DNA from: Nemertoderma westbladi
Lineage: Eukaryota > Animalia > Xenacoelomorpha
NCBI GenBank assembly: GCA_032718475.1
Contig: JAUCBJ010007446.1
Coordinates: 35,335-99,334 of the forward strand
Direction of reading: 5' to 3'
Length of the DNA stretch: 64,000 bases
The notes beneath the pieces are model-generated. The model had not been told where the DNA came from, searched no databases, and saw only the letters and a list, made by a program, of their open reading frames with translations. Each line of letters opens with the position of its first letter. Positions within the stretch are counted from its first letter, which is position 1. Position numbers and translations under genes: made by a program. Positions 1 through 43,999 of the stretch are shown here, one piece after another.

Positions 1-3000
1 TAGGATTAGTAACATCTGTTTGGAGTAGCCGGTACTTGAGACTCGGTTGTAGGAGTTGTCGTTACCAATATAGTTCCTTACCTATAGTAGGATTAGTAAC
101 ATCTGTTTGGAGTAGCCGGTACTTGAGACTCGGTTGTAGGAGTTGGCGTTACGAATATAGTTCCTTACCTATAGTAGGATTAGTAACATCTGTTTGGAGT
201 AGCCGGTACTTGAGACTCGGTTGTAGGAGTTGGCGTTACGAATATAGTTCCTTACCTATAGTAGGATTAGTAACATCTGTTTGGAGTAGCCGGTACTTGA
301 GACTCGGTTGTAGGAGTTGTCGTTACCAATATAGTTCCTTACCTATAGTAGGATTAGTAACATCTGTTTGGAGTAGCCGGTACTTGAGACTCGGTTGTAG
401 GAGTTGTCGTTACCAATATAGTTCCTTACCTATAGTAGGATTAGTAACATCTGTTTGGAGTAGCCGGTACTTGAGACTCGGTTGTAGGAGTTGTCGTTAC
501 CAATATAGTTCCTTACCTATAGTAGGATTAGTAACATCTGTTTGGAGTAGCCGGTACTTGAGACTCGGTTGTAGGAGTTGTCGTTACCAATATAGTTCCT
601 TACCTATAGTAGGATTAGTAACATCTGTTTGGAGTAGCCGGTACTTGAGACTCGGTTGTAGGAGTTGTCGTTACCAATATAGTTCCTTACCTATAGTAGG
701 ATTAGTAACATCTGTTTGGAGTAGCCGGTACTTGAGACTCGGTTGTAGGAGTTGTCGTTACCAATATAGTTCCTTACCTATAGTAGGATTAGTAACATCT
801 GTTTGGAGTAGCCGGTACTTGAGACTCGGTTGTAGGAGTTGGCGTTACGAATATAGTTCCTTACCTATAGTAGGATTAGTAACATCTGTTTGGAGTAGCC
901 GGTACTTGAGACTCGGTTGTAGGAGTTGGCGTTACGAATATAGTTCCTTACCTATAGTACGATTAGTAACATCTGTTTGGAGTAGCCGGTACTTGAGACT
1001 CGGTTGTAGGAGTTGTCGTTACCAATATAGTTCCTTACCTATAGTAGGATTAGTAACATCTGTTTTGAGTAGCCGGTACTTGAGACTCGGTTGTAGGAGT
1101 TGGCGTTACGAATATAGTTCCTTACCTATAGTAGGATTAGTAACATCTGTTTGGAGTAGCCGGTACTTGAGACTGGGTTGTAGGAGTTGGCGTTACGAAT
1201 ATAGTTCCTTACCTATAGTAGGATTAGTAACATATGTTTGGAGTAGCCGGTACTTGAGACTCGGTTGTAGGAGTTGTCGTTACCAATATAGTTCCTTACC
1301 TATAGTAGGATTAGTAACATCTGTTTGGAGTAGCCGGTACTTGAGACTCGGTTGTAGGAGTTGTCGTTACCAATATAGTTCCTTACCTATAGTAGGATTA
1401 GTAACATCTGTTTGGAGTAGCCGGTACTTGAGACTCGGTTGTAGGAGTTGTCGTTACCAATATAGTTCCTTACCTATAGTAGGATTAGTAACATCTGTTT
1501 GTGGAGGGAGTAGCCGGTACTTGAGACTCGGTTGTAGGAGTTGGCGTTACGAATATAGTTCCTTACCTATAGTAGGATTAGTAACATCTGTTTTGAGTAG
1601 CCGGTACTTGAGACTCGGTTGTAGGAGTTGTCGTTACCAATATAGTTCCTTACCTATAGTAGGATTAGTAACATCTGTTTTGAGTAGCCGGTACTTGAGA
1701 CTCGGTTGTAGGAGTTGTCGTTACCAATATAGTTCCTTACCTATAGTAGGATTAGTAACATCTGTTTTGAGTAGCCGGTACTTGAGACTCGGTTGTAGGA
1801 GTTGTCGTTACCAATATAGTTCCTTACCTATAGTAGGATTAGTAACATCTGTTTGGAGTAGCCGGTACTTGAGACTCGGTTGTAGGAGTTGTCGTTACCA
1901 ATATAGTTCCTTACCTATAGTAGGATTAGTAACATCTGTTTGGAGTAGCCGGTACTTGAGACTCGGTTGTAGGAGTTGTCGTTACCAATATAGTTCCTTA
2001 CCTATAGTAGGATTAGTAACATCTGTTTGGAGTAGCCGGTACTTGAGACTCGGTTGTAGGAGTTGGCGTTACGAATATAGTTCCTTACCTATAGTAGGAT
2101 TAGTAACATCTGTTTGGAGTAGCCGGTACTTGAGACTCGGTTGTAGGAGTTGGCGTTACGAATATAGTTCCTTACCTATAGTACGATTAGTAACATCTGT
2201 TTGGAGTAGCCGGTACTTGAGACTCGGTTGTAGGAGTTGTCGTTACCAATATAGTTCCTTACCTATAGTAGGATTAGTAACATCTGTTTTGAGTAGCCGG
2301 TACTTGAGACTCGGTTGTAGGAGTTGGCGTTACGAATATAGTTCCTTACCTATAGTAGGATTAGTAACATCTGTTTGGAGTAGCCGGTACTTGAGACTGG
2401 GTTGTAGGAGTTGGCGTTACGAATATAGTTCCTTACCTATAGTAGGATTAGTAACATATGTTTGGAGTAGCCGGTACTTGAGACTCGGTTGTAGGAGTTG
2501 TCGTTACCAATATAGTTCCTTACCTATAGTAGGATTAGTAACATCTGTTTGGAGTAGCCGGTACTTGAGACTCGGTTGTAGGAGTTGTCGTTACCAATAT
2601 AGTTCCTTACCTATAGTAGGATTAGTAACATCTGTTTGGAGTAGCCGGTACTTGAGACTCGGTTGTAGGAGTTGTCGTTACCAATATAGTTCCTTACCTA
2701 TAGTAGGATTAGTAACATCTGTTTGTGGAGGGAGTAGCCGGTACTTGAGACTCGGTTGTAGGAGTTGGCGTTACGAATATAGTTCCTTACCTATAGTAGG
2801 ATTAGTAACATCTGTTTTGAGTAGCCGGTACTTGAGACTCGGTTGTAGGAGTTGTCGTTACCAATATAGTTCCTTACCTATAGTAGGATTAGTAACATCT
2901 GTTTTGAGTAGCCGGTACTTGAGACTCGGTTGTAGGAGTTGTCGTTACCAATATAGTTCCTTACCTATAGTAGGATTAGTAACATCTGTTTTGAGTAGCC

Positions 3001-6000
3001 GGTACTTGAGACTCGGTTGTAGGAGTTGTCGTTACCAATATAGTTCCTTACCTATAGTAGGATTAGTAACATCTGTTTGTGGAGGGAGTAGCCGGTACTT
3101 GAGACTCGGTTGTAGGAGTTGGCGTTACGAATATAGTTCCTTACCTATAGTAGGATTAGTAACATCTGTTTGGAGTAGCCGGTACTTGAGACTCGGTTGT
3201 AGGAGTTGTCGTTACCAATATAGTTCCTTACCTATAGTAGGATTAGTAACATCTGTTTGGAGTAGCCGGTACTTGAGACTCGGTTGTAGGAGTTGTCGTT
3301 ACCAATATAGTTCCTTACCTATAGTAGGATTAGTAACATCTGTTTGGAGTAGCCGGTACTTGAGACTCGGTTGTAGGAGTTGTCGTTACCAATATAGTTC
3401 CTTACCTATAGTAGGATTAGTAACATCTGTTTTGAGTAGCCGGTACTTGAGACTCGGTTATAGGAGTTGGCGTTACGAATATAGTTCCTTACCTATAGTA
3501 GGATTAGTAACATCTGTTTGTGGAGGGAGTAACCGGTACTTGAGACTCGGTTGTAGGAGTTGGCGTTACCAATATAGTTCCTTACCTATAGTAGGATTAG
3601 TAACATCTGTTTTGAGTAGCCGGTACTTGAGACTCGGTTGTAGGAGTTGGCGTTACCAATATAGTTCCTTACCTATAGTAGGATTAGTAACATCTGTTTG
3701 GAGTAGCCGTTACTTGAGACTCGGTTGTAGGAGTTGGCGTTACGAATATAGTTCCTTACCTATAGTAGGATTAGTAACATCTGTTTTGAGTAGCCGGTAC
3801 TTGAGACTCGGTTGTAGGAGTTGTCGTTACCAATATAGTTCCTTACCTATAGTAGGATTAGTAACATCTGTTTTGAGTAGCCGGTACTTGAGACTCGGTT
3901 GTAGGAGTTGTCGTTACCAATATAGTTCCTTACCTATAGTAGGATTAGTAACATCTGTTTGTGGAGGGAGTAGCCGGTACTTGAGACTCGGTTGTAGGAG
4001 TTGGCGTTACGAATATAGTTCCTTACCTATAGTAGGATTAGTAACATCTGTTTTGAGTAGCCGGTACTTGAGACTCGGTTGTAGGAGTTGTCGTTACCAA
4101 TATAGTTCCTTACCTATAGTAGGATTAGTAACATCTGTTTTGAGTAGCCGGTACTTGAGACTCGGTTGTAGGAGTTGTCGTTACCAATATAGTTCCTTAC
4201 CTATAGTAGGATTAGTAACATCTGTTTTGAGTAGCCGGTACTTGAGACTCGGTTGTAGGAGTTGGCGTTACCAATATAGTTCCTTACCTATAGTAGGATT
4301 AGTAACATCTGTTTTGAGTAGCCGGTACTTGAGACTCGGTTGTAGGAGTTGTCGTTACCAATATAGTTCCTTACCTATAGTAGGATTAGTAACATCTGTT
4401 TTGAGTAGCCGGTACTTGAGACTCGGTTGTAGGAGTTGTCGTTACCAATATAGTTCCTTACCTATAGTAGGATTAGTAACATCTGTTTGTGGAGGGAGTA
4501 GCCGGTACTTGAGACTCGGTTGTAGGAGTTGGCGTTACGAATATAGTTCCTTACCTATAGTAGGATTAGTAACATCTGTTTTGAGTAGCCGGTACTTGAG
4601 ACTCGGTTGTAGGAGTTGTCGTTACCAATATAGTTCCTTACCTATAGTAGGATTAGTAACATCTGTTTTGAGTAGCCGGTACTTGAGACTCGGTTGTAGG
4701 AGTTGTCGTTACCAATATAGTTCCTTACCTATAGTACGATTAGTAACATCTGTTTGGAGTAGCCGGTACTTGAGACTCGGTTGTAGGAGTTGTCGTTACC
4801 AATATAGTTCCTTACCTATAGTAGGATTAGTAACATCTGTTTGGAGTAGCCGGTACTTGAGACTCGGTTGTAGGAGTTGTCGTTACCAATATAGTTCCTT
4901 ACCTATAGTAGGATTAGTAACATCTGTTTGGAGTAGTCGGTACTTGAGACTCGGTTGTAGGAGTTGGCGTTACCAATATAGTTCCTTACCTATAGTAGGA
5001 TTAGTAACATCTGTTTGGAGTAGCCGGTACTTGAGACTCGGTTGTAGGAGTTGGCGTTACGAATATAGTTCCTTACCTATAGTAGGATTAGTAACATCTG
5101 TTTGGAGTAGCCGGTACTTGAGACTCGGTTGTAGGAGTTGGCGTTACCAATATAGTTCCTTACCTATAGTAGGATTAGTAACATCTGTTTGGAGTAGCCG
5201 GTACTTGAGACTCGGTTGTAGGAGTTGTCGTTACCAATATAGTTCCTTACCTATAGTAGGATTAGTAACATCTGTTTGGAGTAGCCGGTACTTGAGACTC
5301 GGTTGTAGGAGTTGGCGTTACGAATATAGTTCCTTACCTATAGTAGGATTAGTAACATCTGTTTGGAGTAGCCGGTACTTGAGACTCGGTTGTAGGAGTT
5401 GGCGTTACCAATATAGTTCCTTACCTATAGTAGGATTAGTAACATCTGTTTGGAGTAGCCGGTACTTGAGACTCGGTTGTAGGAGTTGTCGTTACCAATA
5501 TAGTTCCTTACCTATAGTAGGATTAGTAACATCTGTTTTGAGTAGCCGGTACTTGAGACTCGGTTGTAGGAGTTGTCGTTACCAATATAGTTCCTTACCT
5601 ATAGTAGGATTAGTAACATCTGTTTGGAGTAGCCGGTACTTGAGACTCGGTTGTAGGAGTTGTCGTTACCAATATAGTTCCTTACCTATAGTAGGATTAG
5701 TAACATCTGTTTGGAGTAGCCGGTACTTGAGACTCGGTTGTAGGAGTTGGCGTTACCAATATAGTTCCTTACCTATAGTAGGATTAGTAACATCTGTTTG
5801 GAGTAGCCGGTACTTGAGACTCGGTTGTAGGAGTTGTCGTTACCAATATAGTTCCTTACCTATAGTAGGATTAGTAACATCTGTTTTGAGTAGCCGGTAC
5901 TTGAGACTCGGTTGTAGGAGTTGGCGTTACCAATATAGTTCCTTACCTATAGTAGGATTAGTAACATCTGTTTGGAGTAGCCGGTACTTGAGACTCGGTT

Positions 6001-6600
6001 GTAGGAGTTGTCGTTACCAATATAGTTCCTTACCTATAGTAGGATTAGTAACATCTGTTTGGAGTAGCCGGTACTTGAGACTCGGTTGTAGGAGTTGTCG
6101 TTACGAATATAGTTCCTTACCTATAGTAGGATTAGTAACATCTGTTTGGAGTAGCCGGTACTTGAGACTCGGTTGTAGGAGTTGTCGTTACCAATATAGT
6201 TCCTTACCTATAGTAGGATTAGTAACATCTGTTTGGAGTAGCCGGTACTTGAGACTCGGTTGTAGGAGTTGTCGTTACGAATATAGTTCCTTACCTATAG
6301 TACGATTAGTAACATCTGTTTGGAGTAGCCGGTACTTGAGACTCGGTTGTAGGAGTTGGCGTTACGAATATAGTTCCTTACCTATAGTAGGATTAGTAAC
6401 ATCTGTTTGGAGTAGCCGGTACTTGAGACTCGGTTGTAGGAGTTGTCGTTACCAATATAGTTCCTTACCTATAGTAGGATTAGTAACATCTGTTTTGAGT
6501 AGCCGGTACTTGAGACTCGGTTGTAGGAGTTGTCGTTACCAATATAGTTCCTTACCTATAGTAGGATTAGTAACATCTGTTTGCGGAGTTTCCGGTACTT
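1..6600. repeat. 87-bp minisatellite (~75 copies, runs off the window start) derived from the 3' end of the neurexin stalk exon plus its splice donor
   Basis: Unit TAGGATTAGTAACATCTGTTTGGAGTAGCCGGTACTTGAGACTCGGTTGTAGGAGTTGTCGTTACCAATATAGTTCCTTACCTATAG, with occasional 93-bp variants. It grades into unique exon sequence at ~6580-6640. Confidence 0.97.
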
Positions 6601-17130: not shown

Positions 17131-17286
17131 AATTTAAATTAATTGGATTATAACATTGTTATTTATACATTTATAGATTAACTGTATAAGGGGGCATTCA
17201 TAAAGTATGCCACGCACTAGGGGGGTCGAGCTTGAGTGACACTTTGTGACCCCCCATGTCACAGTGACTTTTTTTTTTTTTTTTTT

Positions 17287-18528
17287 TGTAAAAGCCTTTG
17301 CTGAATTGCCCCGTTATTTTTATTAACTTTTACATTAAAATACTCTGTAGTTGATTTAATAAGTGTAAGAGACCGTATTATTGCTGTATCGGTGTTTTTA
17401 GAGGATCTAAGACCTATTTCCTCCGTATGTGTACTGTGAAAGGCACATTTTGTGATTCTATGGCAATTCGTGACGCAAAGGGGTGATAGCTACTCTTGAA
17501 CAGTAGTTACTATGACTACGGTTAACAGCTGACATTCATACGTGTTGATTTCCTTTGTTCTATGGCGTCTCTCAGTTCAGTCAGCCAATGAGAGCGTTTT
17601 TGTGGCTCCTTGTACAGAAAATTTCCGAGAAATGACGCAATGCCTATGTGCAGTGTTTACATTCAGTCTTGAGCCAAAGAAAGAACGGCTTGGAAGTATT
17701 TTGTGCTGTACTGTTTTTTAGTCGTACACTAGTAGGTTTAATTATAAAGGGCATATATCCTTTAACTGACCTGCAATTTAACATACCTGATGACTGCAAA
17801 CTGACTACTTGAATATCTCATGCCTATGTGCACTGACATACCGGTACTGACTTGTTGTTTTATACTGCTATTTGCCGTCAGTTCTTCATAATATGGTTGA
17901 TGAATAATTATATTTGGAATAACGATAAATAACCCCGCAACCCAATATTCTTGATATACCGAAGGTAAGAGAGAAAGGTTACTAATAACGATTGTGACTT
18001 ATGTTAAAGTGGTTTGAAGTGAATCTAATGTTATTTGATAGACCCTACATGAGTCAGCCTGTGTTCCTTTTATATGTGACTAAAATCAGTGAAGATTGGC
18101 AGATTAGTGTGCAGTATTGTGCAGCATAGTGTATGAGTGAGTCTGTTAAAGAAGCAATTCCTAAAGAATGCGCCATATATGTGGATTATAATTAAGCCAT
18201 ATCGTTGCGAGTAGTTTAAGTCATAACTCTGTTTATGTAGATAAAGCGCCACGTCCTAAAGGAACTGTTAATATTACCGAAGGTGAATAATATTGTCAGA
18301 GATTATATAATACTGTCAGTCGAATAATACATTAGGCTTACATAGCAATAAAAATTAAACCGTCGAACCCAATCTCCCGGGAATATCCAGCGGGTGAATG
18401 GTCGCGCACGGATTGGTTTCGACTAGTGTAGTGAATCAAATACTTGTCATAGACTAAAAAGCGATTTATTATCTAGAAGACATTCTAATTTGGCGGGTTA
18501 AACTGCCAAAGGTCTGAAAGCGCGAACA
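17287..18528 (+). repeat. 5' LTR
   Basis: TGTAAAAGCC...GCGCGAACA; AATAAA at ~18348; repeated at 27819-29060. Confidence 0.95.
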
Positions 18529-18540
18529 TTAAAGGATATA
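18529..18540 (+). promoter_or_regulatory. Non-tRNA primer-binding site, complementary to LTR 17754-17765 (putative self-priming)
   Basis: TTAAAGGATATA directly follows the LTR, with no TGG. Its exact reverse complement TATATCCTTTAA lies inside the LTR. Covaries in the copy at 44197-44206/44956-44965. Confidence 0.75.
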
Positions 18541-20689
18541 GCTTCTTTATTGCAGTAAGCAATAAAGTCGAAAGTACCGGTCGACCGGTAACCAGTAGGC
18601 CTGACTGCCTGATCATCCGGACCGGTACTTACTTCCGTATAAGTACAGCAGTATTATTCGATTTGATTATATATGCCGGTAGGTCTTAATAATTAATCGG
18701 GGACGCCTGGTTTTTATTGGGATTTTACTTAGGCCTATTTCTGTCAGTTTTATTTGTTTGTAGGCCAGTATTGAACAGAAGGCGTGTAAACCTGATCAGA
18801 TTGTACAGACAATTTGTAGGCTGAGCTGTTGTCTGATTGCTGTTAAGTCCGAACGAATTGCAGTGTGTGTAGAGCACTTGTCCGATTAAGTACGGTTAGG
18901 AAGTAGGGGCAGCCACGCTGTAAGGTAAACCCCCAACTAAAGAATAAGTCGCACTACTGGGTTAGAGCGCATACTCCCTAATCATTTCGGAGTCTGCATG
19001 TCCTGTAGTTTATTTAGGCTTGAGAGTAGTCTGCCATCGTTTAGTCTGTACTTTGTTTGTGTAAGTCTGTACGGGTAGCGTATAATTTTATTTAGATAAT
19101 TTGTAGGCTGGATAGTTGTCTGGCTGTTATTAGGTCTGAACGGATTGCCGCGTGTGTAGATCATCTGTCCGATTAAGTACGATTAGGCAGTAGGGGCAGC
19201 AACGCTGTAAGGTAAACCCCCAACTAAAGAATAAGTCGCACTACTGGGTTAGAGCGCATACTCCCTAATCATTTCGGAGTCTGCATATACCGTAGTTTGT
19301 TTAGGCTTGATGGTAGTCTGTCAGTGTTCGGTCTGTATTTTATTTGAGTAGTTTGTACGCGTAGCGTAATATTTATTATTCAGAGTTTATGCGATTATTC
19401 GCAACATTCATTCCCTAAGTTTGTTCCTACAGTAATTGTGTTTGTTATACATACCGTTATAGTTAAATTAACCCCGGTACTATACGGGCTGCTTGGCGTA
19501 GGTAAAGACTGGTGATTTTGTGCATCGGTCACTCCAGCAGATGCCGTGGTTCTTTTAGCTGTTCAAGTATATTTAACTACTGATTATTTGTTGTACAAGT
19601 ACTCGTACCTAATTTAGGGTTTAGTGTACAGTGCTTTCCCGAAGTAATTATTGTAGCCATTATATTTGTGTTGTAAAGTGGTTGATAGGCACATTCGATT
19701 AGCTCTATTAACTTCTAGGTAGGAACACTCCGTGATACATAACGTAGAACCTATAGCGATACGGCTATAGGTCGTCAGGCGGTGGTATTTTCCTATCTAG
19801 ACAACGCAGTGTATTTGCTACTACTTATTATTTCAAATACCGTAGTACCCTGTCCGCTGTAATAATCAGTTTTCTAACCCTTTGTTAGGCTGGTTTGTAG
19901 ACTTCTTGTAAAATTACCCTAAAAATTCGTATTTGTGTTTTTGTAAAATTTTGTGTTTATTTAGAGATTGTAATCTCAACCCAAATTGTACGTAATTTGT
20001 AGTATTAAGTAACTTAGGTAAATTAGTATTATTTGTTTTAGTGTCCTGTACGTAACACTTCACTGAAAGCGCACCGCTTTGTGTAGTGATTACTCCCCAG
20101 AAATAATAACATTTATTTCAAACATTGACAAAACCCATTAAAACGGGTATATATATATTATAAATCAAATCTAACGATTTATAAATCGTAGGCCTACCAT
20201 ACAACCATTAGGTCTCAATATAAGTTGGATTACTGCTCAAATAACGGTAATAAAGTAAGTAAAGTAACCAAGTAACCCTAAAGTAACAGAAAGTCAATTA
20301 TTTGAAATAATTGATATACCGGTATTTACGATAGGCCTATTATCTTTACTTCTATAAATCTAGGCTGAAATTATACCGGTACTTGTAATTAATTCTATTT
20401 CAGAATTATATATACTACAAACTGTAAGCTGTATATACCGGTATTCCGATAGGCCTATTATATTTTTATATATATTTGTGCTAAAATTATACCGGTATTC
20501 TGTGATAAACCTAGTCTGTAATAATAGTTATATATACTATAAGCATACCGGTATTCTAATATATTATATATATCACGCTACACTGAGTAGCAGTACCGGT
20601 AATTAATTACTAGGCTAGCAGTTAATACTGAGTTACTAGACTTGCTCAGACTGTAATACAGCAGTAGACATTCAACTGTACACATAAGC

Positions 20690-23600
20690 ATGTCGGACGC
20701 AAAGCAGAATCTGTCAGACAGTCTACTAGATACAACCGAGAGCGAAGTGACAGCAGAGAAACCGCATAAGAAGGATGCCATTGATATCTATCTGTCTGAC
20801 TATCAGCGTTTTTTGGGAGATGAAGAGTTGAGGAGAAGGTTAGAGGGACTTAGCCCTAATAGCGAAGGAGCCAAACTCGTGTTAGATGCAATTGATGTGG
20901 ATAGGTTAGCGGCGAACCAAGCTAAATTCGATGAACAACTCCGCCTGACAAGAGTCAAAGAAGAACAAGTAAAGAAAAAACGTATAGAAGACAGAAAGGC
21001 AGCGGCAGTAGCAGCAGCAGCTGCAGAAGCAGAAACAAAGGCAGCAGCGGCAGAGGCAGCGGCAGAGGCAAAAGCGGCAGCGGCAGAGGCAAAAGTGGCA
21101 GAGGCAGCGGCAGAGGCAAAAGCGGCAGAAGCAGAAAGAAAGGCGGCAATGGCAGCGACCGAAGCGGAAAGAAAGGCGGCAGAGGCAGTGGCAGAAGCAG
21201 AACGGAGGGCATCTGAAGAGGCAACCCAAATAGAGTTGGAAAATCTTCAAGAGAGGCAAGACAACTTCAATAAACAGTTAACAGCGAGCAATATGCAGAT
21301 GATGAGTCGATCTACTCCCAAGAGACAGGGGTATACATCATCTGAGGAAGGCGATACCACCGACACCGAAGGCGGAGGAAATCGATCTCGCCTAAGCAGA
21401 CGTAAAAGAACATTCCACCGGCAGAAATTGCCTGATTTGCCTCCAGCTGTTAGAAGGCAACTAAATAACACCAAAATAGGTAGTACAGAGCCCACAGACC
21501 AAATAATTAAAATAGAAAGACTCCCTACTATAGTAGATGAGCCTGAAATAATTAGGCCTGTTCTTGAAATCACCCCTTCGGTGATAGACGCACATGTGCT
21601 CCCTGAAACTACCTCTAAATTCCCTCTGCATAGCACTAAGCTACCTGTGCCCCGCAGAACTGCCCAAGAGACAGTTCAGGTCCTGGACCCCGAGCGAAAT
21701 ATTCACAATTTGTCGCCCGTTGTCCCTCGTCCGCCCGCTACAACGTTGGCGACTCCCGCTTCGGCGGTCGAATGGGTGGACAGGGGACGGCGGGGGATGG
21801 ATATCCTGCTCGGGCAGATGCAGGAGACTGTCCAGCAATTCAAGGGCACAGTAAGGGAAAGTAGGCTAGAGTTGCAAGAAGTGCAGCAAAGTATCGCGCT
21901 AGAACGCGATAAATTAGTAAATACCCAAAAGGGTATACCACCACCCTCTGTAACAATGTGTCAACCTGTTAGGTCTGAAGTATTGCATGCGCAAGGTGTG
22001 GAGCCTACACGCATATATACTGCTAGCGAAGTAGAAACTCCTATAGTGAACCCTATTAAGGGTAATTATAGACCTGTTGATAATGATATTCCCTATAGAA
22101 CTGATCATAATCCGAGAAATTTATATACCGATAACTCGATATTAAATAACACGATGGCCCAAGAAAGTTTTACGCGTCAAATGGCTAGAACCGAAGCCCG
22201 GCAAGCGGTAAAGGTTGGAGAGATCGTCAAGTTCAATGGAGATGAGATGAAGTGGTTACCTTTTAATGAATATTACAAAGATAACATACAGAACTCTGTA
22301 CTATCTAATGGAGAAAAACTTAGATACCTCATCGAGTGCTTGGAAGGATCTCCCAAGTTAATGGCGTTAAGGTTTATTGGACATCCAGACGGATTAAGAC
22401 AAGTTTGGGATACACTAAACATCAGGTATGGTAATAGGAATAACATAGCTGGGTATTTGTATGCAAAGTTGGTAGCGCCCCGAAAGTTTATTAGCAGCGG
22501 GATTATAGAGTTTTCCGATGAAATTCAGGAGATCTGCAGACAATTAGATTGGCTAGGTAAGTCTCATGAGTATCAGAGTGCTATGGTTATTAGAGCAGTG
22601 GCTTCTACTTTACCGAAGGGTGGAGTAGGTACACGCTGGGATAAGAAAGTGTTATATATGATGGAACAACAACGACGAGACCCTACCATGGCTGATCTCA
22701 TGTCATTCTTAGATGGAGAAGTGAAATTACAGCTCCTAAGGCAGTCCAGAGAGAAGACATTGGAAAACAAGGTAAGTGAGAAACCCGTTTCTAGGAGAAG
22801 GGTAATACCAGTATGTTATACCGACGACGGTGAAAGCCAAACTTCTCAAGGAGAGGACAGCGGGAAAGACACTGACAGATCTTATGTCAATAAAATGCCT
22901 AAAGATCAGGTAAGTAAATCCAAGTCTCGACCCAATGACAGAAGGGAACCGGTACAAAAAACCCCTCCTACGTCTCCTAAAAGAACTCAGGTGAGAAAGC
23001 CCGAGGAAAGAACAAGTGTGCACCACATAGCACAGGTTAAAGTAAGTAACATCAAGCCCAAATGTGTGCTGTGCGACGGGCCCCACCGTTTAAATGCGTG
23101 TGATAAATTCCTGAGGAAATCACTAAAGGATAGACGTGAAGTCATGTGGGATAAGCGGTTGTGTTATAATTGCCTCAGACGAGGACACCAACGGCGAACC
23201 TGTAACTCCGACGCAAGGTGTGCAAAGTGCGGCGCAAAACATCATATCTTGTTGCACACGGAATTCGAACGAAACAGCCAGAGTCAGGTAAGTGAGTCCG
23301 AACTACATGTCCAATTCAGTGATGTGAACGATACTGATCAATCTGAGATGGAAGGATTCTATACGGACGAGTTCTCCGACCAAAACGAATCCTGTTACCT
23401 AATAAACACCACCGCAGTGTATCGAGTACTCGTGCATGAGGAAGACACAGACAGCGACCTTACCTTAACTACTTCCGATCAACAACCATCTTGGAAAGCG
23501 CCAACTTCCAATATAGGAATCCGAGAATTTCCTGTAGTCCAGTTACGGGTCCACGGACCTCAGAAGAGCTATATAGTGAACGCCCTCCTGGACTCCGGTA

Positions 23601-24802
23601 GCACAGGAACATTCGTCGATAAAGAACTAGCCGAAGTCATCTTTGCTGGACAACCCAAGTTCCGAACCAAGCTAAACATGTCAGGGATCATGCAGGTTTG
23701 GAATTCTACTGTAGCTGCCGACTATTATATAGGTGAGTTGTCCACCCCCCAGGACGAACTAGGAGAACATAGCATCAGGTCAGTGAAAATGGTGGCTATA
23801 AAGAACTTCGCTACTACTCAAGCAGACCTTTATAATTGGGACGAGGATGAGAGCATCCAACATCTTAACATACCTCGATTCCAGACTGATTATCCTGGAG
23901 TGCAAATACTCATCGGCCAAAACGCGCATGAGGCGCTGGAGACATTAGAGAAACGGCCTGCTCAACCGCAGCCACTACAGACCTATGCGGTAAGAACTAG
24001 AGTAGGTTGGTACCTTACTGGACCTTCCCGTAGAACGCTCAGGGAAAGACTGCTTCAAGATCGCGTCTGCCAGGTGAGTGAATGGGAAGATGATACTAGT
24101 GAGGGAGACGACCCAACTGAGGGAACACCACACTCCTCAGATAATGACAATCTTAGCTCCAATGTAGATCAATGGAGATATTGCCCCAAGAAGTTTAATC
24201 CAACGGACATCGCTTCCAGAGGAGCAACTCCTCAAGAACTGACAGATACTATAGACCGGTTAGGTGAACCCGACTTCCTGAGTAAGGAGAATGAATGGCC
24301 TCCCCATCTTACTCCGACTGAGATTAGACCAGCCAAGGGAGCGGAGAAAGTCGAACCTGAAACCCGGACGGGTGGATCGGAGTTATTTGAACCCGGGATA
24401 GATCTGTCGGTATTACATGTTGCCAGGGACGACGCCGTGGATCTGGGCTTCCCCTCCGCGAGTGGATCCTTCATGAAGATCAGAGAGAGCGATTGGAGCT
24501 CTGGAACATCAGACGTCTCGCAGGGACTCTCACCTCTCCTGCAGAGAGCGACGGACCACTATAGCTCCTGGAATCGGCTTTGTGACGCCGTCATATACTT
24601 TGAGCGATGTTTCTATCGTCACTATTCCAGGACGAAGAGGAAACCTGGAATTGTATTCAGGATGCAGCGACTCAATCACCCAGTCGGTCGTTTGTGTTTA
24701 TCGGAAGGAAATGGAGGACTCTCCGGAAACTGTGGAAGGCAAGATTCTCTTCCCACGACCACCTCCCTAATCCTTCAAACATCTAGGGACTCCATAACGT
24801 AA
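20690..24802 (+). CDS. BEL/Pao Gag-protease polyprotein with an RNase H C-terminal remnant (1370 aa)
   Basis: Pao-type Gag core (KFNGDEMKWLPF...EKLRYLIECLEG...LNIRYG). Three zinc knuckles (CVLCDGPHRLNAC, CYNCLRRGHQRRTC, CAKCGAKHHILLH). Protease ALLDSGS...ILIG...AVRTRVGWYLTGP. Then WRYCPKKFNPTDIASRG...PDFL...WP. No YVDD motif or integrase core. Confidence 0.92.
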   Translation: MSDAKQNLSDSLLDTTESEVTAEKPHKKDAIDIYLSDYQRFLGDEELRRRLEGLSPNSEGAKLVLDAIDVDRLAANQAKFDEQLRLTRVKEEQVKKKRIEDRKAAAVAAAAAEAETKAAAAEAAAEAKAAAAEAKVAEAAAEAKAAEAERKAAMAATEAERKAAEAVAEAERRASEEATQIELENLQERQDNFNKQLTASNMQMMSRSTPKRQGYTSSEEGDTTDTEGGGNRSRLSRRKRTFHRQKLPDLPPAVRRQLNNTKIGSTEPTDQIIKIERLPTIVDEPEIIRPVLEITPSVIDAHVLPETTSKFPLHSTKLPVPRRTAQETVQVLDPERNIHNLSPVVPRPPATTLATPASAVEWVDRGRRGMDILLGQMQETVQQFKGTVRESRLELQEVQQSIALERDKLVNTQKGIPPPSVTMCQPVRSEVLHAQGVEPTRIYTASEVETPIVNPIKGNYRPVDNDIPYRTDHNPRNLYTDNSILNNTMAQESFTRQMARTEARQAVKVGEIVKFNGDEMKWLPFNEYYKDNIQNSVLSNGEKLRYLIECLEGSPKLMALRFIGHPDGLRQVWDTLNIRYGNRNNIAGYLYAKLVAPRKFISSGIIEFSDEIQEICRQLDWLGKSHEYQSAMVIRAVASTLPKGGVGTRWDKKVLYMMEQQRRDPTMADLMSFLDGEVKLQLLRQSREKTLENKVSEKPVSRRRVIPVCYTDDGESQTSQGEDSGKDTDRSYVNKMPKDQVSKSKSRPNDRREPVQKTPPTSPKRTQVRKPEERTSVHHIAQVKVSNIKPKCVLCDGPHRLNACDKFLRKSLKDRREVMWDKRLCYNCLRRGHQRRTCNSDARCAKCGAKHHILLHTEFERNSQSQVSESELHVQFSDVNDTDQSEMEGFYTDEFSDQNESCYLINTTAVYRVLVHEEDTDSDLTLTTSDQQPSWKAPTSNIGIREFPVVQLRVHGPQKSYIVNALLDSGSTGTFVDKELAEVIFAGQPKFRTKLNMSGIMQVWNSTVAADYYIGELSTPQDELGEHSIRSVKMVAIKNFATTQADLYNWDEDESIQHLNIPRFQTDYPGVQILIGQNAHEALETLEKRPAQPQPLQTYAVRTRVGWYLTGPSRRTLRERLLQDRVCQVSEWEDDTSEGDDPTEGTPHSSDNDNLSSNVDQWRYCPKKFNPTDIASRGATPQELTDTIDRLGEPDFLSKENEWPPHLTPTEIRPAKGAEKVEPETRTGGSELFEPGIDLSVLHVARDDAVDLGFPSASGSFMKIRESDWSSGTSDVSQGLSPLLQRATDHYSSWNRLCDAVIYFERCFYRHYSRTKRKPGIVFRMQRLNHPVGRLCLSEGNGGLSGNCGRQDSLPTTTSLILQTSRDSIT

Positions 24803-27800
24803 CAACATATGGAGTGGGCGTGTGACTCTATTATTTTATGTTATTATTATTATTTTTATATTTATGTATGTATTACTAGGTAATTTTATTATAATCGTTT
24901 TATTTAATTTAGTAGAATATTATTTAGCGATTATTTTGTAGAATAGTGCAATATATTCGTGTTTATTATGTACATACTTACTTATATTATATTTAGTGCG
25001 ACGGCGAAGAAATAATTATTTTTCTCTTCCTTACTGTCCGTATTATATTATAAATACGTAACTACAGTAAGATGAAATGTCTGTACTTATTGAGGTACAA
25101 TAAAGCCACTACTATATTTAAGTATTATTGGTAGGCAGAGTATTAGGAATGCAAAGTTCAGATCCTCGTGTCTCGGCTAAACCAAGCTCTGGGTAGACCT
25201 TGGAAACGACTTGCCTCTTCACACTGACATTGCTTCGTGCGATATTGCTCTCATACCGTATATTAAATAATACATATAGTAGCGTGATGTCCCTTTAACA
25301 GTAGCGTATAACGCAAAATAAATCTGTTAAACCCTTTGACTATCTGTAATTCTAGTCGATTAAGATATCGTGGCACCCACCGATATACTTGAAAGACAAA
25401 TTCTAGAATCAGTGGTTAACGTCCCCAGACAAGTTCTGGAATAAATTGGTGCCCATCTCAAATATTAATTATTTAATATTTGCAAATCTAATACGTCAAA
25501 ATCTGTAAAATTCAGATCCTTCAACAATTCTAGTCAATTAAGATATCGTAGCATTTACCGATATTCTTAAAAAGACAATTGTCATAGAATTAAGGATCTT
25601 GTGTCCCCAGACATGTTCTGGAATCCAAATATGTCCATTTAATTATCAAATAATAAAATTTCAGGGAATCAATTTAAATTCATGCCTTTTAATGAATTTA
25701 ATAAATTGCCATTTTTACGCAATTTATAAAGTTCCCAAAATTCCATTAATTAATAGATCAAGGGAGCGGAGATTTATCTTATCATGCGTATGAGTGTGTG
25801 AAAGTCTCCCAAACATAGTCAATAGCCGATAAAATTCATAAAGTCATGTATAAAACAGAACATTGACTATTAAAGAATTACTATTAAATAACATCCCAGA
25901 TCTGTATGCATTGGAATCACCCTAATTCTACCGCTAGCTTTGCATAATGTCACCATAGCAACAACCACGCTAGAATTAGAATTGAGTTAAAAGAACAATA
26001 GAAAGCTTGTCCCATTGAATAGCATAGGGAATAAATAGTGCACTGATAGTATCCAAGGATACATAATAATACAGTGACATTCTGGAAGGCATTGACTAAC
26101 GGACAAGTGACCCGAGTGTGTGTAATTTGTGACAAGTTGTGTGTGTGGTATTTGTGAGTTTATAGGTGAATGTTACTGCTAAGGTGTGTTTACAGTAGCT
26201 AGTCGCAATCGTAAAAGTAACCTAACTCTCCAAGGAAACCTGAAGTACATCTAAGCCTTTGGGACGGACAGTTGAGTGACTTGTGCCGGTTGTCGTTGTC
26301 GTTGTGCGGCTACGTCGTTGGCGAAAGTACAGCGGCGACGACACATCGGCGCTGAGGATCTCGTACTGTCCGGGGGTTGATTGAAGTAGGCAGCGACGCC
26401 CGCTCGCCTAAATGTGGACTCATTATAATATGGATAAACTCATATATAGCAGATATGACGGAGTTGATAGAAGATGGTCTTGGTATCGGGGAGCGATATA
26501 CTCTACTTTTACAAGCGCTTGTTGATAGCTTAATACGCGGCGACGTTAGTCCAACTGCTGCGGAGGACGATGGTCGTTATATCGAACCGCCAATGTCCCA
26601 AGAGCAGCTCACGCGTGAGTTGGACTATAGAAAATTCGCTGCTCGATATACGCGGCGCAATGGTACGTATATGGGCTTCTTAACTACTGGTCATCCTATC
26701 GATTTACACAATACGGACTATGTCGACTATATATCCTGCCCAGCGGAGTCGGAACCATAAACGGAAATTCGAATGCGAAAATTCTATTCGAAATCGACTC
26801 GAAAGAAAAGACACTTAAGAAACAAATGGACGCGGTGACTCCAACGTATATTTGGAATTCTTGATAGAAGCATTGTAACAACAAATAAATATCGCCCGCG
26901 TTTACCCCATCAGACGTGCGTCTTTGGTATTATTACGATAAATGCCCTAGACCCAACTAATAAACGGAAAGACATAAACATCCACGTAAACCGAAACTTG
27001 TTGACGTATCACCTATGCTCACTCGGCTCGAACGATCCTGGAGTAAACCTACGATCAGAGTCCCGGAATACTCGGTCAAACCTCCTCATTCCTTAGTTGG
27101 ACCTCAGACCTGCGATCTTGGTGGTGTCGCGGATCCTCGCGGACTGTATTCACTGTTCAAAGATCTAGTGCTACCCTAACAATTAATCGGTAACACTCCG
27201 GCAGTGATTTCTAGCTAGCCGCCCATCTTACCTAGCCAGATTGTGACGCGGACACCTAATATCACTATCCAACCGTATGGTCGTCCACGTTTAACGCGAT
27301 ACAACCCCTCATCACGGTGAAGGAGAGCGTTGTACGAAACGAGTTAAACGCTATTTTATAAAGATCAAAAGGGAAACCTGCGTTTGTTCAGATAAACGTA
27401 AGTTATACCAGTGAGTCCAATCGATAAACGAATTGGCCTTATCTCAATTCAATTGAGAAATCCAGAATCTCTAAGAAGTTATCGAACTTGGACGATCCTA
27501 TTCTCTGCGAGAGTTTTTGGATGAACGTATCCAGCTACGAGCGGAGGAAAATCAGCTCGAGGAGAAGCATATCGAAACGGCAGATACCTCGACCACAATC
27601 CTACACCTTCTGATGCAATCATATTGCACCCTTCACCCAGGAGTTATGGCCCTCCTAGTAAAGTGGCTCCCCCCAAAGAGAAAAAGACTCTTGCTAGCCT
27701 CAAAAAACTGCGTAAACGCCGTCTGCGCAAGAAAGACTAACTGTTTAGAGTATCTTTGTGTTTTAGAAACTGTGATTTTTATATTTTATGGACTGAAAAT

Positions 27801-27818
27801 CCCATTTTCTGGGAGCGG

Positions 27819-29060
27819 TGTAAAAGCCTTTGCTGAATTGCCCCGTTATTTTTATTAACTTTTACATTAAAATACTCTGTAGTTGATTTAATAAGTGTAA
27901 GAGACCGTATTATTGCTGTATCGGTGTTTTTAGAGGATCTAAGACCTATTTCCTCCGTATGTGTACTGTGAAAGGCACATTTTGTGATTCTATGGCAATT
28001 CGTGACGCAAAGGGGTGATAGCTACTCTTGAACAGTAGTTACTATGACTACGGTTAACAGCTGACATTCATACGTGTTGATTTCCTTTGTTCTATGGCGT
28101 CTCTCAGTTCAGTCAGCCAATGAGAGCGTTTTTGTGGCTCCTTGTACAGAAAATTTCCGAGAAATGACGCAATGCCTATGTGCAGTGTTTACATTCAGTC
28201 TTGAGCCAAAGAAAGAACGGCTTGGAAGTATTTTGTGCTGTACTGTTTTTTAGTCGTACACTAGTAGGTTTAATTATAAAGGGCATATATCCTTTAACTG
28301 ACCTGCAATTTAACATACCTGATGACTGCAAACTGACTACTTGAATATCTCATGCCTATGTGCACTGACATACCGGTACTGACTTGTTGTTTTATACTGC
28401 TATTTGCCGTCAGTTCTTCATAATATGGTTGATGAATAATTATATTTGGAATAACGATAAATAACCCCGCAACCCAATATTCTTGATATACCGAAGGTAA
28501 GAGAGAAAGGTTACTAATAACGATTGTGACTTATGTTAAAGTGGTTTGAAGTGAATCTAATGTTATTTGATAGACCCTACATGAGTCAGCCTGTGTTCCT
28601 TTTATATGTGACTAAAATCAGTGAAGATTGGCAGATTAGTGTGCAGTATTGTGCAGCATAGTGTATGAGTGAGTCTGTTAAAGAAGCAATTCCTAAAGAA
28701 TGCGCCATATATGTGGATTATAATTAAGCCATATCGTTGCGAGTAGTTTAAGTCATAACTCTGTTTATGTAGATAAAGCGCCACGTCCTAAAGGAACTGT
28801 TAATATTACCGAAGGTGAATAATATTGTCAGAGATTATATAATACTGTCAGTCGAATAATACATTAGGCTTACATAGCAATAAAAATTAAACCGTCGAAC
28901 CCAATCTCCCGGGAATATCCAGCGGGTGAATGGTCGCGCACGGATTGGTTTCGACTAGTGTAGTGAATCAAATACTTGTCATAGACTAAAAAGCGATTTA
29001 TTATCTAGAAGACATTCTAATTTGGCGGGTTAAACTGCCAAAGGTCTGAAAGCGCGAACA
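27819..29060 (+). repeat. 3' LTR
   Basis: Direct repeat of 17287-18528, preceded by a polypurine tract at 27811-27818. Confidence 0.95.
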
Positions 29061-29208
29061 GGGGTGGGGTATACATTTTTTTTGTGACAGGGGGGGGGGG
29101 GGGGGGGTTGGGGGTCAAAAAACTGGAAAATTTGCGTGACATACTTTATGAACGCCCCCTAATATTGAGTAACTAAACACGAATAAAACATCCAATCAGA
29201 CAACCCAC

Positions 29209-29676: not shown

Positions 29677-32235
29677 ACTACTACTAGGATCGGCATGCTG
29701 CATTGCAGCTGCATTTGCTGCTGCAATGCAGCATTTGCTTGTAGACAAAATTGCGCCGCCACAACTCTCTATCACCCATAACATTTGCAAGATCATCCGC
29801 ATCTTCAAGGCCAGTGTCCTTTAAGATGCGTCTCAAGAAAGTCATGGGCTGTCCACCATGCTTATTCACTCCATGAGGCTGCCAAAGTACAAGATTATGC
29901 ACTGGCTGGTCCTCACGGCGAAAGTAATGTCCTGCAAAGCGGATGCGATTTTGTTCTAGTGTCAAGCTTGGGGGAACTAATGAGACACCTCCAATGTTAT
30001 ATAGTGTCTGGTTGGAGATGTGTGCATTGCCGTTGACACAATGAACCCGGCGTAGCATTCTTGTGAAAGTGCCATCCAGAGATTTGGTGTCCTCAGCAAT
30101 TAGAGCCCAGCATGGACTCCCATAGAGGAGTACTGGAACTACTGCTGCTCTAAATAATCGGACATTAATTTTCCGATTAATTCTCGGTGACTTCCAAATC
30201 CTGGAAAGCCTATTCAAGGCTGCCCATGCCTTTCCCTTACGTATTCGAAGGTCCTCACCTGACTTCCGGATCCATGATCCCAGGTAACAGAAGTCGTCCA
30301 CATGCTCAAGCATACCATCCTTTGAGCTTATGTTCATCCGATCAGAGACTTGCTGAGGACTTTCAAAGTTAACTGTCAAAATTTTGGTCTTTCTGGAGTT
30401 AATAAAAAGAGCAACACTAGAAGCAGCATGTTCTAATGAGCTGAGGAGCGGTTGGGCTCCCTCTAGTGATTCTGAGAGTACTCCTAAGTCATCAGCAAAG
30501 TCTAGATCAGTTAGGTACTTGGCAGGATTTCCTCGACTTCTGGAGCCAGTAGATGGAGTTATCATCACTCCATCATCATTATGATGATCTAAGGACATGC
30601 GTAAAACATAGTCAACCACAATTATGAACAAGAATGGTGCAAGTGTGTCTCCCTAGAGGATGCCCCATAACACTTCAAATGGTTCTGTGTCACCGTCAAC
30701 AGTAGACACAAATGTTGTCGAACCATCGTATACTGATCTGATTGCTGCAATAATTTCATCAGCAATCCCATATAATGAAAGTATGCTGAACATACGTGAA
30801 CGAGATACTGAATCAAAGGCCTTGAAGAAGTCAACAATGATAACAGCCAGATTCCTGTCTTTCCTTTTTGATAACTCTTCAATTATCCTTCTAAGTGCCA
30901 AAATGGGCTCCATGATCCCACGACCTTTACGGAACCCATTCTGATTTCCACGGAGCAGTCTCTCAATGGGATCCCTGCGATTTAATAGAATTCTATTGTA
31001 TAGCTTTGCAGCAATCGAGATCAATGAGATTCCCCGAAAAGAACCATAGAGTGTTAGGTTGGCCTTCTTGGGAACTGGCACCAACTTATTTGTTTTCATT
31101 TCTTGTGGGACTCTTGTTGTTCGGTACATGTCTTCTATGATGGGATAGATGAGCTTTTCAAGTATTTTAAAGACCTCAGGGGGAACACCATCTAATCCAC
31201 TGGCATGATTGGTCTTAATGCTCTTTGCAGCAGCCTTCACTTCTGCAAAGGAGATATCGCCAATGGGAATATCTGGGAGTACAGACTCAGACACTTTTAC
31301 TTCTATAAAGTTATCAGGCAATACCCTGTCATTATTGAGGAGCTTTTCAAAGTGGGCTTTCCAACCATTGAGGCGATCGGCTGGTGATTCAGCCTTAACC
31401 TTGGTGGTTGGTTGGCTTTTCCGCCCAGTAAGCAAGTTGATCGATTTCCATGCCTGGGATGATTGCCTGCTGTCGTCAGCATCATTGATGGCATCAACCT
31501 GTTGGTTTATTAGCTCCTGTAAATTAACAGAGTACTGCCTGTTCAGGGACCTAGATGCAGCCTTGACTGCATTCTTGGCCGCTGTAGTCTGTTTGAGTCG
31601 GGACTATTTCTGCACCTTATAGAGGTAATTTCGGCACTTCTGAATTTTGTTGTCAGTCCAGAGGGCCCTTTTCCTGTTTCGAGGGTATACAGGAACTGTT
31701 TCTGCAGCTGCTAACTTAACTGCTTCTGTGAAGGCAGTATAGCGCTCACAGTGATCTGCCGCCTCAGAGGCAAGAACCTCGTACCTGTTGCTCTGCTGTA
31801 GTGTGAAGCTGGATCTCACACTTGGCTGTTGCAACAGAGAGGACCAGTCATGCCGCGACAAGGCAGATTTCGTTGTTCTGCTAGCACGCAGACTAAGTCT
31901 TACCTTGGCCACAATAAGGCGGTGATCACTCGAGAAGGGTCGAAGTGTAAATGCATTACAGTCTTGCATAGAGCTCCTATATTTCCTACGAAACAGAATA
32001 TGGTCTATCTGGGACTTGTGACCACTGGGTCCCACCCGAAACACCCGAAAACAATCCATTTCCAGAGATAAAATCCTGAAGATGGACGGAATTTCGGTTA
32101 ACACTATTGCTATAGACCCAGGGCAATGTAGGTGATTGATGCAGACTTGCATTAAAGTCTCCCAGGAATGTTAAGAATGCATGCTGATCCACTCCATCAG
32201 TAGCTGCTTGTAGATTGTGGTATATTGGTGTCCGT
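29677..32235 (-). mobile_element. Degenerate 5'-truncated RTE-like LINE (APE endonuclease end + reverse transcriptase), frameshifted
   Basis: GDFNA, SQIDHIL, SDHRLI (APE); FRGISLISIAAKLYNRIL, QNGFRKGR, DFFKAFDSV, DLDFADD (RT). (TAG)n tail at 29677-29686. Candidate TSD TAGCCATT(A/G)CAT at 29665-29676 and 32236-32247. Confidence 0.92.
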
Positions 32236-32884: not shown

Positions 32885-34054
32885 TTACATATCTGTTTCC
32901 TCTTCCGACTCTAACAGAGCCTCAGTATCTTCTGTTTCTAACTGAGTCGACCTGTTTCTCTTCCTCTTCCATTCGATGTCTTCCCGATAATAATAGGCCT
33001 TGAATGCGACGTGCATGGCCACCCCAGCGACACAGACCATCATCCCTACGATATTCAGTGGCGACAACCTGCTGTCTCCACCGTAAAGACTCGCCAAAGT
33101 CAGAGTCAATATCTCTTTAATGACTCCGCTCACGCAGAAGCCAATGCTCGATATTCTAGAAACAAAAAGAAACTCGGACATCTCGAGAAAAAAAGCGATA
33201 AAAGCGCCGCCACTAAACTTCGTAAGGGAAAGCAGGATAATATCTAATGGCTGGTCAAACGATATAGAAGATGTAAACAGTTTACTCTCAAAAACAGCGG
33301 CTAAAGGTAACAAACCCACAATCATTATTGGTTGTACCACGAATATAACATCTAAAGGATTGCTGAGTCCGAAGTCGGCTCTTTGGGTCACCACTTGAGC
33401 CAAAGTCCATCGGATTCCGCTTAAAATGGACGCGGAAAGAACCAAAATAAAGCCGAAAACGTTAACATCCGTCTTCTTGTAGGTGAACATAAATAAACCG
33501 CCGGCTATAAGGAGCACAACGATAAGTATAGAGATGCGAGGTTTCTCTAGTTTTAGGATCAACGCGCATCCCAGAATCCATATAATAACGGTACTCTTAG
33601 ACATCGTGTATAGAGTTATTGTTATAAACATAATACTCCAGTTGGATAATCCGATATCCCAGGCGGCCGCCAAGCCGGTGGGTAGAATGGACCAGCAGTA
33701 CTGCTTACAGGATAATCCTACGGGTTGGTAACCACAACAACGGATCCTTACACAACGGGACACAGCTGCCAAAATAAATTTAATTACTAAATGATAACAA
33801 GTCATAATTAGTGGATATTTGAAGTCGCGTAGAACCCATTTGTTATAGAAGGTGAGACCTATAGAACAGCTGTAGTAGAATAAAACTAAACAGAAGACGA
33901 ATATCCCCCGATTACAGAGTTCCTTGCAGGATGGTCTATTGATGGAAGAGTCGCGAGAAATGTTGTGTTTCAGTTTAATTTTAGTTTCCCTAACAACCCG
34001 TTTGGCTTGGCGTCTGAAGTTACGCGGTTCATTGTCACTTTTAATAACAACCAT
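32885..34054 (-). CDS. SLC35C2: Solute carrier family 35 member C2-like (nucleotide-sugar/triose-phosphate transporter family), single coding exon, 389 aa
   Basis: SIGLTFYNKW, PTGLAAAWDIGLSNWSIMFITITLYTMSKST, LSGIRWTLAQ, GLSNPLD, SEFLFVSRISS...GVIKE; multiple hydrophobic segments. Probable 5'UTR intron acceptor (ttcgttgcag) at ~34171. Confidence 0.92.
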   Translation of the reverse strand: MVVIKSDNEPRNFRRQAKRVVRETKIKLKHNISRDSSINRPSCKELCNRGIFVFCLVLFYYSCSIGLTFYNKWVLRDFKYPLIMTCYHLVIKFILAAVSRCVRIRCCGYQPVGLSCKQYCWSILPTGLAAAWDIGLSNWSIMFITITLYTMSKSTVIIWILGCALILKLEKPRISILIVVLLIAGGLFMFTYKKTDVNVFGFILVLSASILSGIRWTLAQVVTQRADFGLSNPLDVIFVVQPIMIVGLLPLAAVFESKLFTSSISFDQPLDIILLSLTKFSGGAFIAFFLEMSEFLFVSRISSIGFCVSGVIKEILTLTLASLYGGDSRLSPLNIVGMMVCVAGVAMHVAFKAYYYREDIEWKRKRNRSTQLETEDTEALLESEEETDM

Positions 34055-37870: not shown

Positions 37871-38510
37871 GGTCTCAAAGTGCATCTGTTCTTTGAGATT
37901 TTCTCAAAGTTTTTCTAAAAGTGTCTAAAAGTCATTACATTACTCCCAACGGTCGCTTTGAATTCTTGTAGACACTTTTAGTTGGGAATCTCAAAGTGAT
38001 TTCCTGCTTTTAGGCACTTTTAATTCTTTGAGAAATGTCACTTTGAGGTAGTTTGCGGCACTTTTAATTCTTTGAGAAAATAAACTCCGAGGTATTCCTG
38101 ATTGACAGCTCGTGGTAGGTTAACTGAGAGGCAGAGGCATTCTCGGGGAACAATATTATGCGGGCAACAAAGTGATACTTGTGTGTTGGCCAGTTGTTGC
38201 ATAGAAGCTATATTCCCATTAATTTATCAAATTGAGGTTCCTGAGGTCATTACAGGATGGGTTTTCGGTCGCAAGTACAAATTGAATTTACGGCACCCTA
38301 AAGTCTTTCTAAAAAACATTCATTCAAATAATACATGAAACATAATTTGTGAAACAAGATTAATGCTTGACAAGATTGATTATTTTAATAACATAATACA
38401 ATATCAGATTAACAATTAATATAAGAGAAACTTCTCTGTAGTTTCTCTGTGTATACGCAGTTTCATTATAATGACCTAAAGAAGCCCTGTTGGGAGAAAG
38501 CTTGTAATAA

Positions 38511-43202: not shown

Positions 43203-43240
<38 letters not shown>

Positions 43241-43998: not shown

Positions 43999-43999
43999 C

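Follow-up and report, generated by a model that had tools for sequence, protein, structure and literature searches.

How does an LTR retrotransposon start reverse transcription when the position next to its 5' LTR does not fit the end of a tRNA? The question is raised by element A, a BEL/Pao retrotransposon in the window, i.e. the whole 64,000-nt stretch of DNA analysed here. The ICTV describes the replication of BEL/Pao elements as poorly understood and primed by host tRNAs, with an 18-nt site for tRNA-Arg or tRNA-Gly in Belpaoviridae (PMC8742986), and the BEL/Pao element Achilles has a tRNA-Tyr site (PMC4580426, in part). A preliminary description of the locus had proposed instead that element A primes itself, and we discuss here how far this proposal holds.

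Element A consists of the following parts:

17287-29060, forward strand: element A, an LTR pair bounding an ORF
17287 to 18528, forward strand: 5' LTR, 1242 nt, TGT...ACA
20690 to 24802, forward strand: single ORF, ATG at 20690 and stop at 24802
within 20690 to 24802, forward strand: BEL/Pao Gag with DUF1759, profile match PF03564
from 23063, 23162 and 23219, forward strand: three Cys-His boxes in the ORF
23585, forward strand: protease motif LLDSGS in the ORF
about 24160-24350, forward strand: short RNase H-end remnant in the ORF (tblastn)
27811 to 27818, forward strand: candidate PPT, a short purine-rich tract before the 3' LTR, from the sequence
27819 to 29060, forward strand: 3' LTR, with the second copy of the complement discussed below at 28286-28297

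The two LTRs, of 1242 nt each, are 100% identical (17287-18528 versus 27819-29060), and element A has thus been copied recently through its primer site. They have the TG...CA ends expected of BEL/Pao elements. The earlier assignment of Gag and protease to the BEL/Pao type was borne out by the PF03564 match (DUF1759; E 1.5e-11, 44.9 bits for a cut-off of 25.4), by the Cys-His boxes and by the families of the relatives. A DUF1759-type Gag with a triple Cys-His box is a hallmark of BEL/Pao (PMC554778, in part). PF05380 occurs in 14 of 15 relatives of the protein and PF03564 in the remaining one; one or the other was found in 18 of the 20 representatives scanned among 150 listed relatives. All listed relatives with an assigned family are of the BEL/Pao type, and not of the Ty3/gypsy chromovirus type whose polyprotein characterises the Tf1/sushi lineage. 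When 15 full-length relatives were compared with element A by tblastn, only Gag, protease and a remnant of the RNase H end (40-87 residues) were recovered; reverse transcriptase (RT), the main RNase H block and integrase gave no match. The element is therefore a non-autonomous derivative for which an RT tree is impossible. Judging from its sequence, then, element A is a recently copied, non-autonomous BEL/Pao derivative. Identity to the relatives is mostly 25-35%, which means that the libraries searched hold no close partner. No autonomous partner was found among viral contigs either, whether with a Gag query (none of 3 stretches confirmed) or with a BEL alignment (1 of 55 confirmed, an integrase end without repeats). 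An LTR motif search of the viral contigs gave no match, and a search of prokaryote genomes returned nothing. The LTR-end motif hit two loci in metagenomes, both discarded as 20-nt bacterial chance matches.

The 2.1-kb leader (18541-20689) contains a 290-nt duplication (18807-19096 and 19094-19384, 86%) and numerous short repeats with ACCGGT. The 3 kb between the ORF and the 3' LTR (24803-27818) have no recognisable coding content; there, frames of 134 aa (26356) and of 71 aa (27525, basic) correspond to no Pfam family, and five short frames past or overlapping the end of the ORF have no Pfam match. Flanks differ at 4, 5 and 6 nt (TTTTT on the left, within a 20-nt run of T, and GGGGT on the right), so that no target-site duplication of the 4-6 bp typical of BEL/Pao surrounds the element. 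Element A is inserted mid-way in a small element with inverted ends (17162-17286 and 29061-29187) and TAA on both sides, which resembles a Harbinger-type MITE. Elsewhere in the window, the reverse strand carries broken reverse transcriptase frames at 29684-31603, probably from a non-LTR element, and an uninterrupted 394-codon frame at 32885-34069 for an SLC35C2-like nucleotide-sugar transporter. Satellite arrays lie at 1-6500, 38510-43999 and 45400-54000; they include an 87-nt unit, a complex array with longer units and a 38-nt unit.

Four features of element A are central to the question of priming:

18529 to 18540, forward strand: primer-binding position, TTAAAGGATATA, not of the tRNA-3'-end type
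17754 to 17765, forward strand: 12-nt complement, perfect reverse complement of 18529-18540 and candidate self-primer
17743 to 17748, forward strand: TATAAA hexamer, present in A only and the basis of two rival readings
18347 to 18352, forward strand: AATAAA, also found at the aligned place (44400) in the sister element B introduced below

The 5' LTR does end at 18528, and the lack of a TGG behind it, already reported in the preliminary description, extends over the next 52 nt; the same is true of element B. Mature tRNAs end in CCA. Hence, the 3' end of a mature tRNA cannot pair at the element A site. Neither A nor B has the 18-nt site complementary to a tRNA 3' end by which the ICTV text describes BEL/Pao (PMC8742986). 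The perfect 12-nt complement inside the LTR was also confirmed, once per LTR: on the forward strand of the whole window the reverse complement of TTAAAGGATATA occurs only at 17754 and at 28286, in the 3' LTR copy. The AATAAA, earlier placed at about 18348, starts one letter before, and the complement does lie upstream of it. An in-silico criterion for self-primers asks for an LTR complement of at least 10 nt to a site starting 0-5 nt after the LTR (PMC6317226, in part). By this measure the match has 12 nt in A and 10 nt in B, both at offset 0.

Might such a match arise by chance? The sequence is rich in A+T, which speaks for it. Yet, among 5000 dinucleotide shuffles of the element A LTR only one gave a complement of at least 12 nt, and none of 9239 control start positions inside element A reached 12 nt. 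Further evidence comes from a sister element that lies in the same window, on the opposite strand:

44207 to 45413, reverse strand: 5' LTR of element B, 1207 nt
44197 to 44206, reverse strand: primer-binding position of B, GTAACAGTTA
44956 to 44965, reverse strand: 10-nt complement in B, 9 nt after AATTA, as in A

The LTR of B sits between two satellite arrays. About 200 nt of leader follow it, the element being truncated near 44000. The B LTR is about 72% identical to that of A over the downstream 700 nt, and the LTR positions of the complements are 449 in B and 468 in A. The preliminary description had mentioned a covarying second copy, and this is what we find: the two primer sites share only 6 of 10 letters, and each is perfectly paired with its own LTR. 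Cross-tests fail, since the A site finds no more than 6 nt in the B LTR and the B site 5 nt in the A LTR. In A as in B, complementarity starts with the base directly behind the LTR and stops at this point. The sequences, their positions and the covariation between the two families can be read directly from the DNA, and the comparison of paired sites is one of two families, A and B. The match in B is short enough for 13 of 5000 shuffles to do as well. The joint chance of paired sites at the same LTR position is about 1e-8, a rough figure from base composition. Given the like place in both elements, a chance match is extremely improbable and we regard it as all but ruled out.

The covariation also bears on whether a host RNA, for example half a tRNA, primes at this site while the pairing serves as a long-range RNA contact (circularisation, an aid to strand transfer or a switch). 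Half-tRNA primers are known in copia lineages (PMC6317226 and PMC5445492, both in part). The end of the B complement fits the anticodon-loop pattern, but the A complement does not, and in the A site only 5 letters of 10 match the internal site for tRNA-Lys in PMC5445492 (in part). This explanation also requires two different host RNAs, one per family, and a helix that would cover the very site needed by the primer. The window contains no tRNA genes. We consider this reading unlikely, and return below to the position of the TATAAA, which is in its favour. Other sources of a primer were discarded. A separate primer RNA encoded by the element finds no candidate, the 12-mer being confined to the LTRs and Rfam giving no family above chance on element A (one weak match, 23 bits for a cut-off of 78). 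A primer built by splicing is not needed, and the best complement spanning a junction has 8 nt over 3601 junctions in A, with none of at least 8 nt over 2158 junctions in B.

If the complement is to serve as primer in the manner of Tf1, it should stand at the front of the RNA. Several observations on the LTRs were counted in favour of a start at the complement. In A and B the complements each start 9 nt after AATTA and follow an A; this shared spacing puts their 5' ends in register, while their lengths differ. Upstream of the complement the two LTRs are 50% identical, against 47% when shuffled, although each of 50 shuffles aligns with a lower score. Downstream the identity rises to 71-74% and the AATAAA is kept. 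We infer from these patterns that the RNA would start at or just before 17753-17754. The TATAAA at 17743 complicates this picture. A TATA box usually lies about 30 nt from the start of transcription. Read in this way, the hexamer would put the start of A near 17773, downstream of the complement, as priming by a host RNA would permit. But TATAAA is absent from the corresponding place in B, and in element A some contigs have the run of A in the hexamer shortened by one base.

The same hexamer admits a further reading, self-priming with another geometry, in which the primer is an internal piece of the RNA or the 3' LTR copy of the complement (28286-28297); an RNA 3' end might be made at the complement, or the piece might be donated by a second packaged RNA. 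The complement is indeed present in both LTRs of A. TATAAA and AGTAAA are both minor poly(A) hexamers, and they lie upstream of the 3' end of the complement, by 17 nt in A (TATAAA, 17743) and by about 32 nt in B (AGTAAA, about 44993). However, both elements have retained a canonical AATAAA 580 nt further downstream, extension would be blocked by a poly(A) tail, it is the 5' ends and not the 3' ends of the complements that are in register with the upstream motif, and the sequence behind the complement is the least conserved block of the LTR, a poor fit to a processing site. Such a geometry is improbable in our view.

The Tf1-like fold itself was examined by structure prediction. Two predicted hairpins frame the helix:

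18489 to 18510, forward strand: predicted hairpin close to the end of the LTR; B retains it despite two one-sided changes
18545 to 18567, forward strand: predicted hairpin of 9 bp downstream of the site; in B it has 8 bp, one pair being lost on both sides

From the candidate start, the helix between these hairpins is predicted at 0.81-1.00 per pair and closes a loop of about 760 nt. With RNAs starting at the complement, its predicted probability is 0.83-0.97 for three of six end points in A and 0.68-0.98 for all four in B. For the other three ends in A (18750, 18800 and 18900) it falls to 0.00-0.06, the fold being 0.2-3.9 kcal/mol behind the best one. A start at least 100 nt upstream leaves 0.00-0.01 in both elements, and a start about 35 nt upstream gives 0.72 or 0.00 in A and 0.11 in B. 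The prediction varies with the RNA ends and is not robust; by it, the helix could form and would gain from an RNA that starts at the complement. Within the conserved LTR stretch there is also a candidate intron of about 76 nt (17966-18041 on the forward strand; about 44780-44701 on the reverse strand in B), with donor-like GTAAGA/GTTAGA and a conserved CTAAT...AG acceptor. No spliced joint for it occurs among the contig joints listed for A or B.

Contigs assembled from public sequencing runs give information on variation between copies. Among 11 runs listed, six, from four studies, hold part of element A, and none is recorded as RNA; X5 may be of RNA, and X1 may be the source sample. Thousands of contigs fall on the LTRs of A and B, which are thus families. 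The leader and complement of the B type are covered by contigs of run X1 and of runs X3 and X4, which come from other studies than X1; B is hence a family and not one decayed copy. This matters because the unusual site might be peculiar to defective copies, the inherited result of an error in copying, while the active partner uses an ordinary tRNA site. Element A does lack RT and integrase, B is truncated, and no partner was seen. Yet, the identical LTRs imply recent copying through the site, no tRNA site is left for replication, and an accident would have had to strike the same spot twice, in two families rich in contigs. We find this explanation very doubtful.

The contigs reveal one region that differs between copies:

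17766 to 17858, forward strand: block differing between copies, from contig joints; candidate strand-transfer region

Copies of A are alike up to the end of the complement and begin to differ immediately behind it. Seven of the ten joints in A, among those listed, start at 17766-17775 and none lies inside the complement; they come together again at about 17800-17853, and the intervening letters are often different (X1, X3 and X5). The block is 48% identical to B, against 71% downstream. This divergence may mark where the cut RNA ends and where the strand is first transferred. If the RNA started near 17773, the transfer point would be almost identical, and the joints do not fully separate the rival readings. 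No variant in site or complement appears in the rows listed (40 of 149 for A, 40 of 47 for B), which proves little, as about 35 variable places in 941 nt predict fewer than one in the 20 nt of B. Most of the depth in B shows another letter at position 13 after the LTR, which lies outside the helix.

Further observations concern the contigs and the repeats of the LTR. A drop in depth behind the B complement (from 138523 to 5781 in X1 and from 65580 to 1525 in X3) was not counted as evidence of transfer; among the joints listed none crosses this bin, for which three small insertions are listed. A patchwork origin of the variable block is unconvincing, with one 13-nt repeat (17640 and 17820) among four LTR repeats. 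Near 44164-44212, one low-depth contig of X5, under another organism label, carries a third type of LTR end and leader, which again starts without TGG; its orientation is ambiguous and its LTR unseen. At 44210, four letters before the end of the B LTR, a different base makes up roughly a third of the X1 depth, which may point to an additional subfamily.

A complement to the very first bases behind the LTR, family-specific yet perfect, is most simply explained by priming of the Tf1 type. We thus favour, with a probability of roughly 0.6, Tf1-like self-priming of the non-autonomous element A from the 5' end of its own RNA; that it primes itself by some geometry or other is distinctly likely. What supports the original proposal is the non-tRNA site, the self-complementarity at the exact primer position and the replaced letters in B. 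The RNA would start at or just before 17753-17754 and its first 12-13 nt would fold onto 18529-18540, closing the loop of about 760 nt between the conserved hairpins. RNase H from an autonomous partner would cut after 17765, and the freed 3' end would be extended into the LTR end by an RT that the partner element also supplies. The first strand transfer would then follow slightly downstream of the cut, in the region that varies between copies. A primer of this kind also templates the next site, so that site and complement would drift together, and this joint drift would explain why A and B differ despite perfect pairing in each. Some points are at odds with Tf1-like priming: the loop is long, the TATAAA is found in A only, folding depends on the RNA ends, and there are two families only, no partner and no target-site duplication.

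If Tf1-like priming is correct, priming without tRNA would occur in all three superfamilies of LTR retrotransposons, shown in gypsy, predicted in copia and proposed here in BEL/Pao. It predicts that the RNA begins at 17753-17754 and that the cDNA carries an RNA of 12-13 nt, and implies that the RNase H of BEL/Pao must cut an RNA-RNA helix. Such elements might no longer depend on the tRNAs of the host and might escape silencing through tRNA fragments. They would be misjudged by programs for which a tRNA site is obligatory. On balance we would suppose that a BEL/Pao lineage in animals swapped tRNA priming for self-priming independently of Tf1/sushi. Its primer would be the front of a very long R, free to change in sequence between families, with the variable block recording the place of strand transfer.

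How new would this be? The main text of a BEL/Pao survey (PMC3118150) never mentions PBS, primer or tRNA, and the accessible part of the Sinbad paper (PMC554778) mentions neither tRNA nor priming. No self-priming in BEL/Pao is reported in the accessible parts of PMC3601003, PMC6934838, PMC13524379, PMC5443660, PMC5445492 and PMC12440569. No title or opening of an abstract in the literature covered claims self-priming in a BEL/Pao element; subscription papers, Repbase entries and supplements were mostly outside this scope, and a prior mention is possible. Self-priming would be new for BEL/Pao in these sources, but it would not be the first beyond Tf1/sushi, as it had already been predicted in the copia TAR lineage (PMC6317226, in part). 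In C. elegans, Cer7 is said to encode its own primer RNA.

Compared with Belpaoviridae as described by the ICTV, element A has the same DUF1759 Gag, three Cys-His boxes, DSG protease and TG...CA LTRs, the length of the latter being at the upper end of the 0.2-1.2 kb given for the family (PMC8742986). Unlike them, it has no tRNA site, RT or integrase. The GalEa elements of fungi (copia) also lack a tRNA site and have a hairpin just after the LTR, the Conserved Hairpin Site (PMC5445492, in part). There, a local palindrome forms the hairpin and no LTR complement was found (same source, in part), whereas element A has its complement in the LTR and its hairpin after the site. The closest parallel is with Tf1 and Tf2 of Schizosaccharomyces pombe, Tj1 and the Tf1/sushi group, in which a site adjoining the LTR is complementary to an LTR segment of 10-12 nt (PMC7175516 and PMC4600332, both in part). 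In Tf1 the RNA folds its 5' end onto the site, and RNase H cleaves behind the helix to free a piece that is then extended (PMC7175516 and PMC5341516, both in part); the primer is the first 11 bases and the cut falls between bases 11 and 12 (PMC7175516, in part). Self-priming was proposed for Tj1 of S. japonicus (PMC4600332, in part). Start and cut are established in Tf1 and proposed for element A, which also differs from the Ty3/gypsy elements of the Tf1/sushi group in its BEL/Pao proteins, its loop of about 760 nt and its lack of autonomy. Self-priming has likewise been predicted for Tcn1 (Ty3/gypsy) and the copia TAR lineage (PMC6317226, in part). For plant Tcn1 and for TAR/Houba/Osr-1 (Ty1/copia), the evidence is of the same kind as ours, and the criterion is the one applied above to A and B (PMC6317226, in part), but they belong to other superfamilies and another kingdom.
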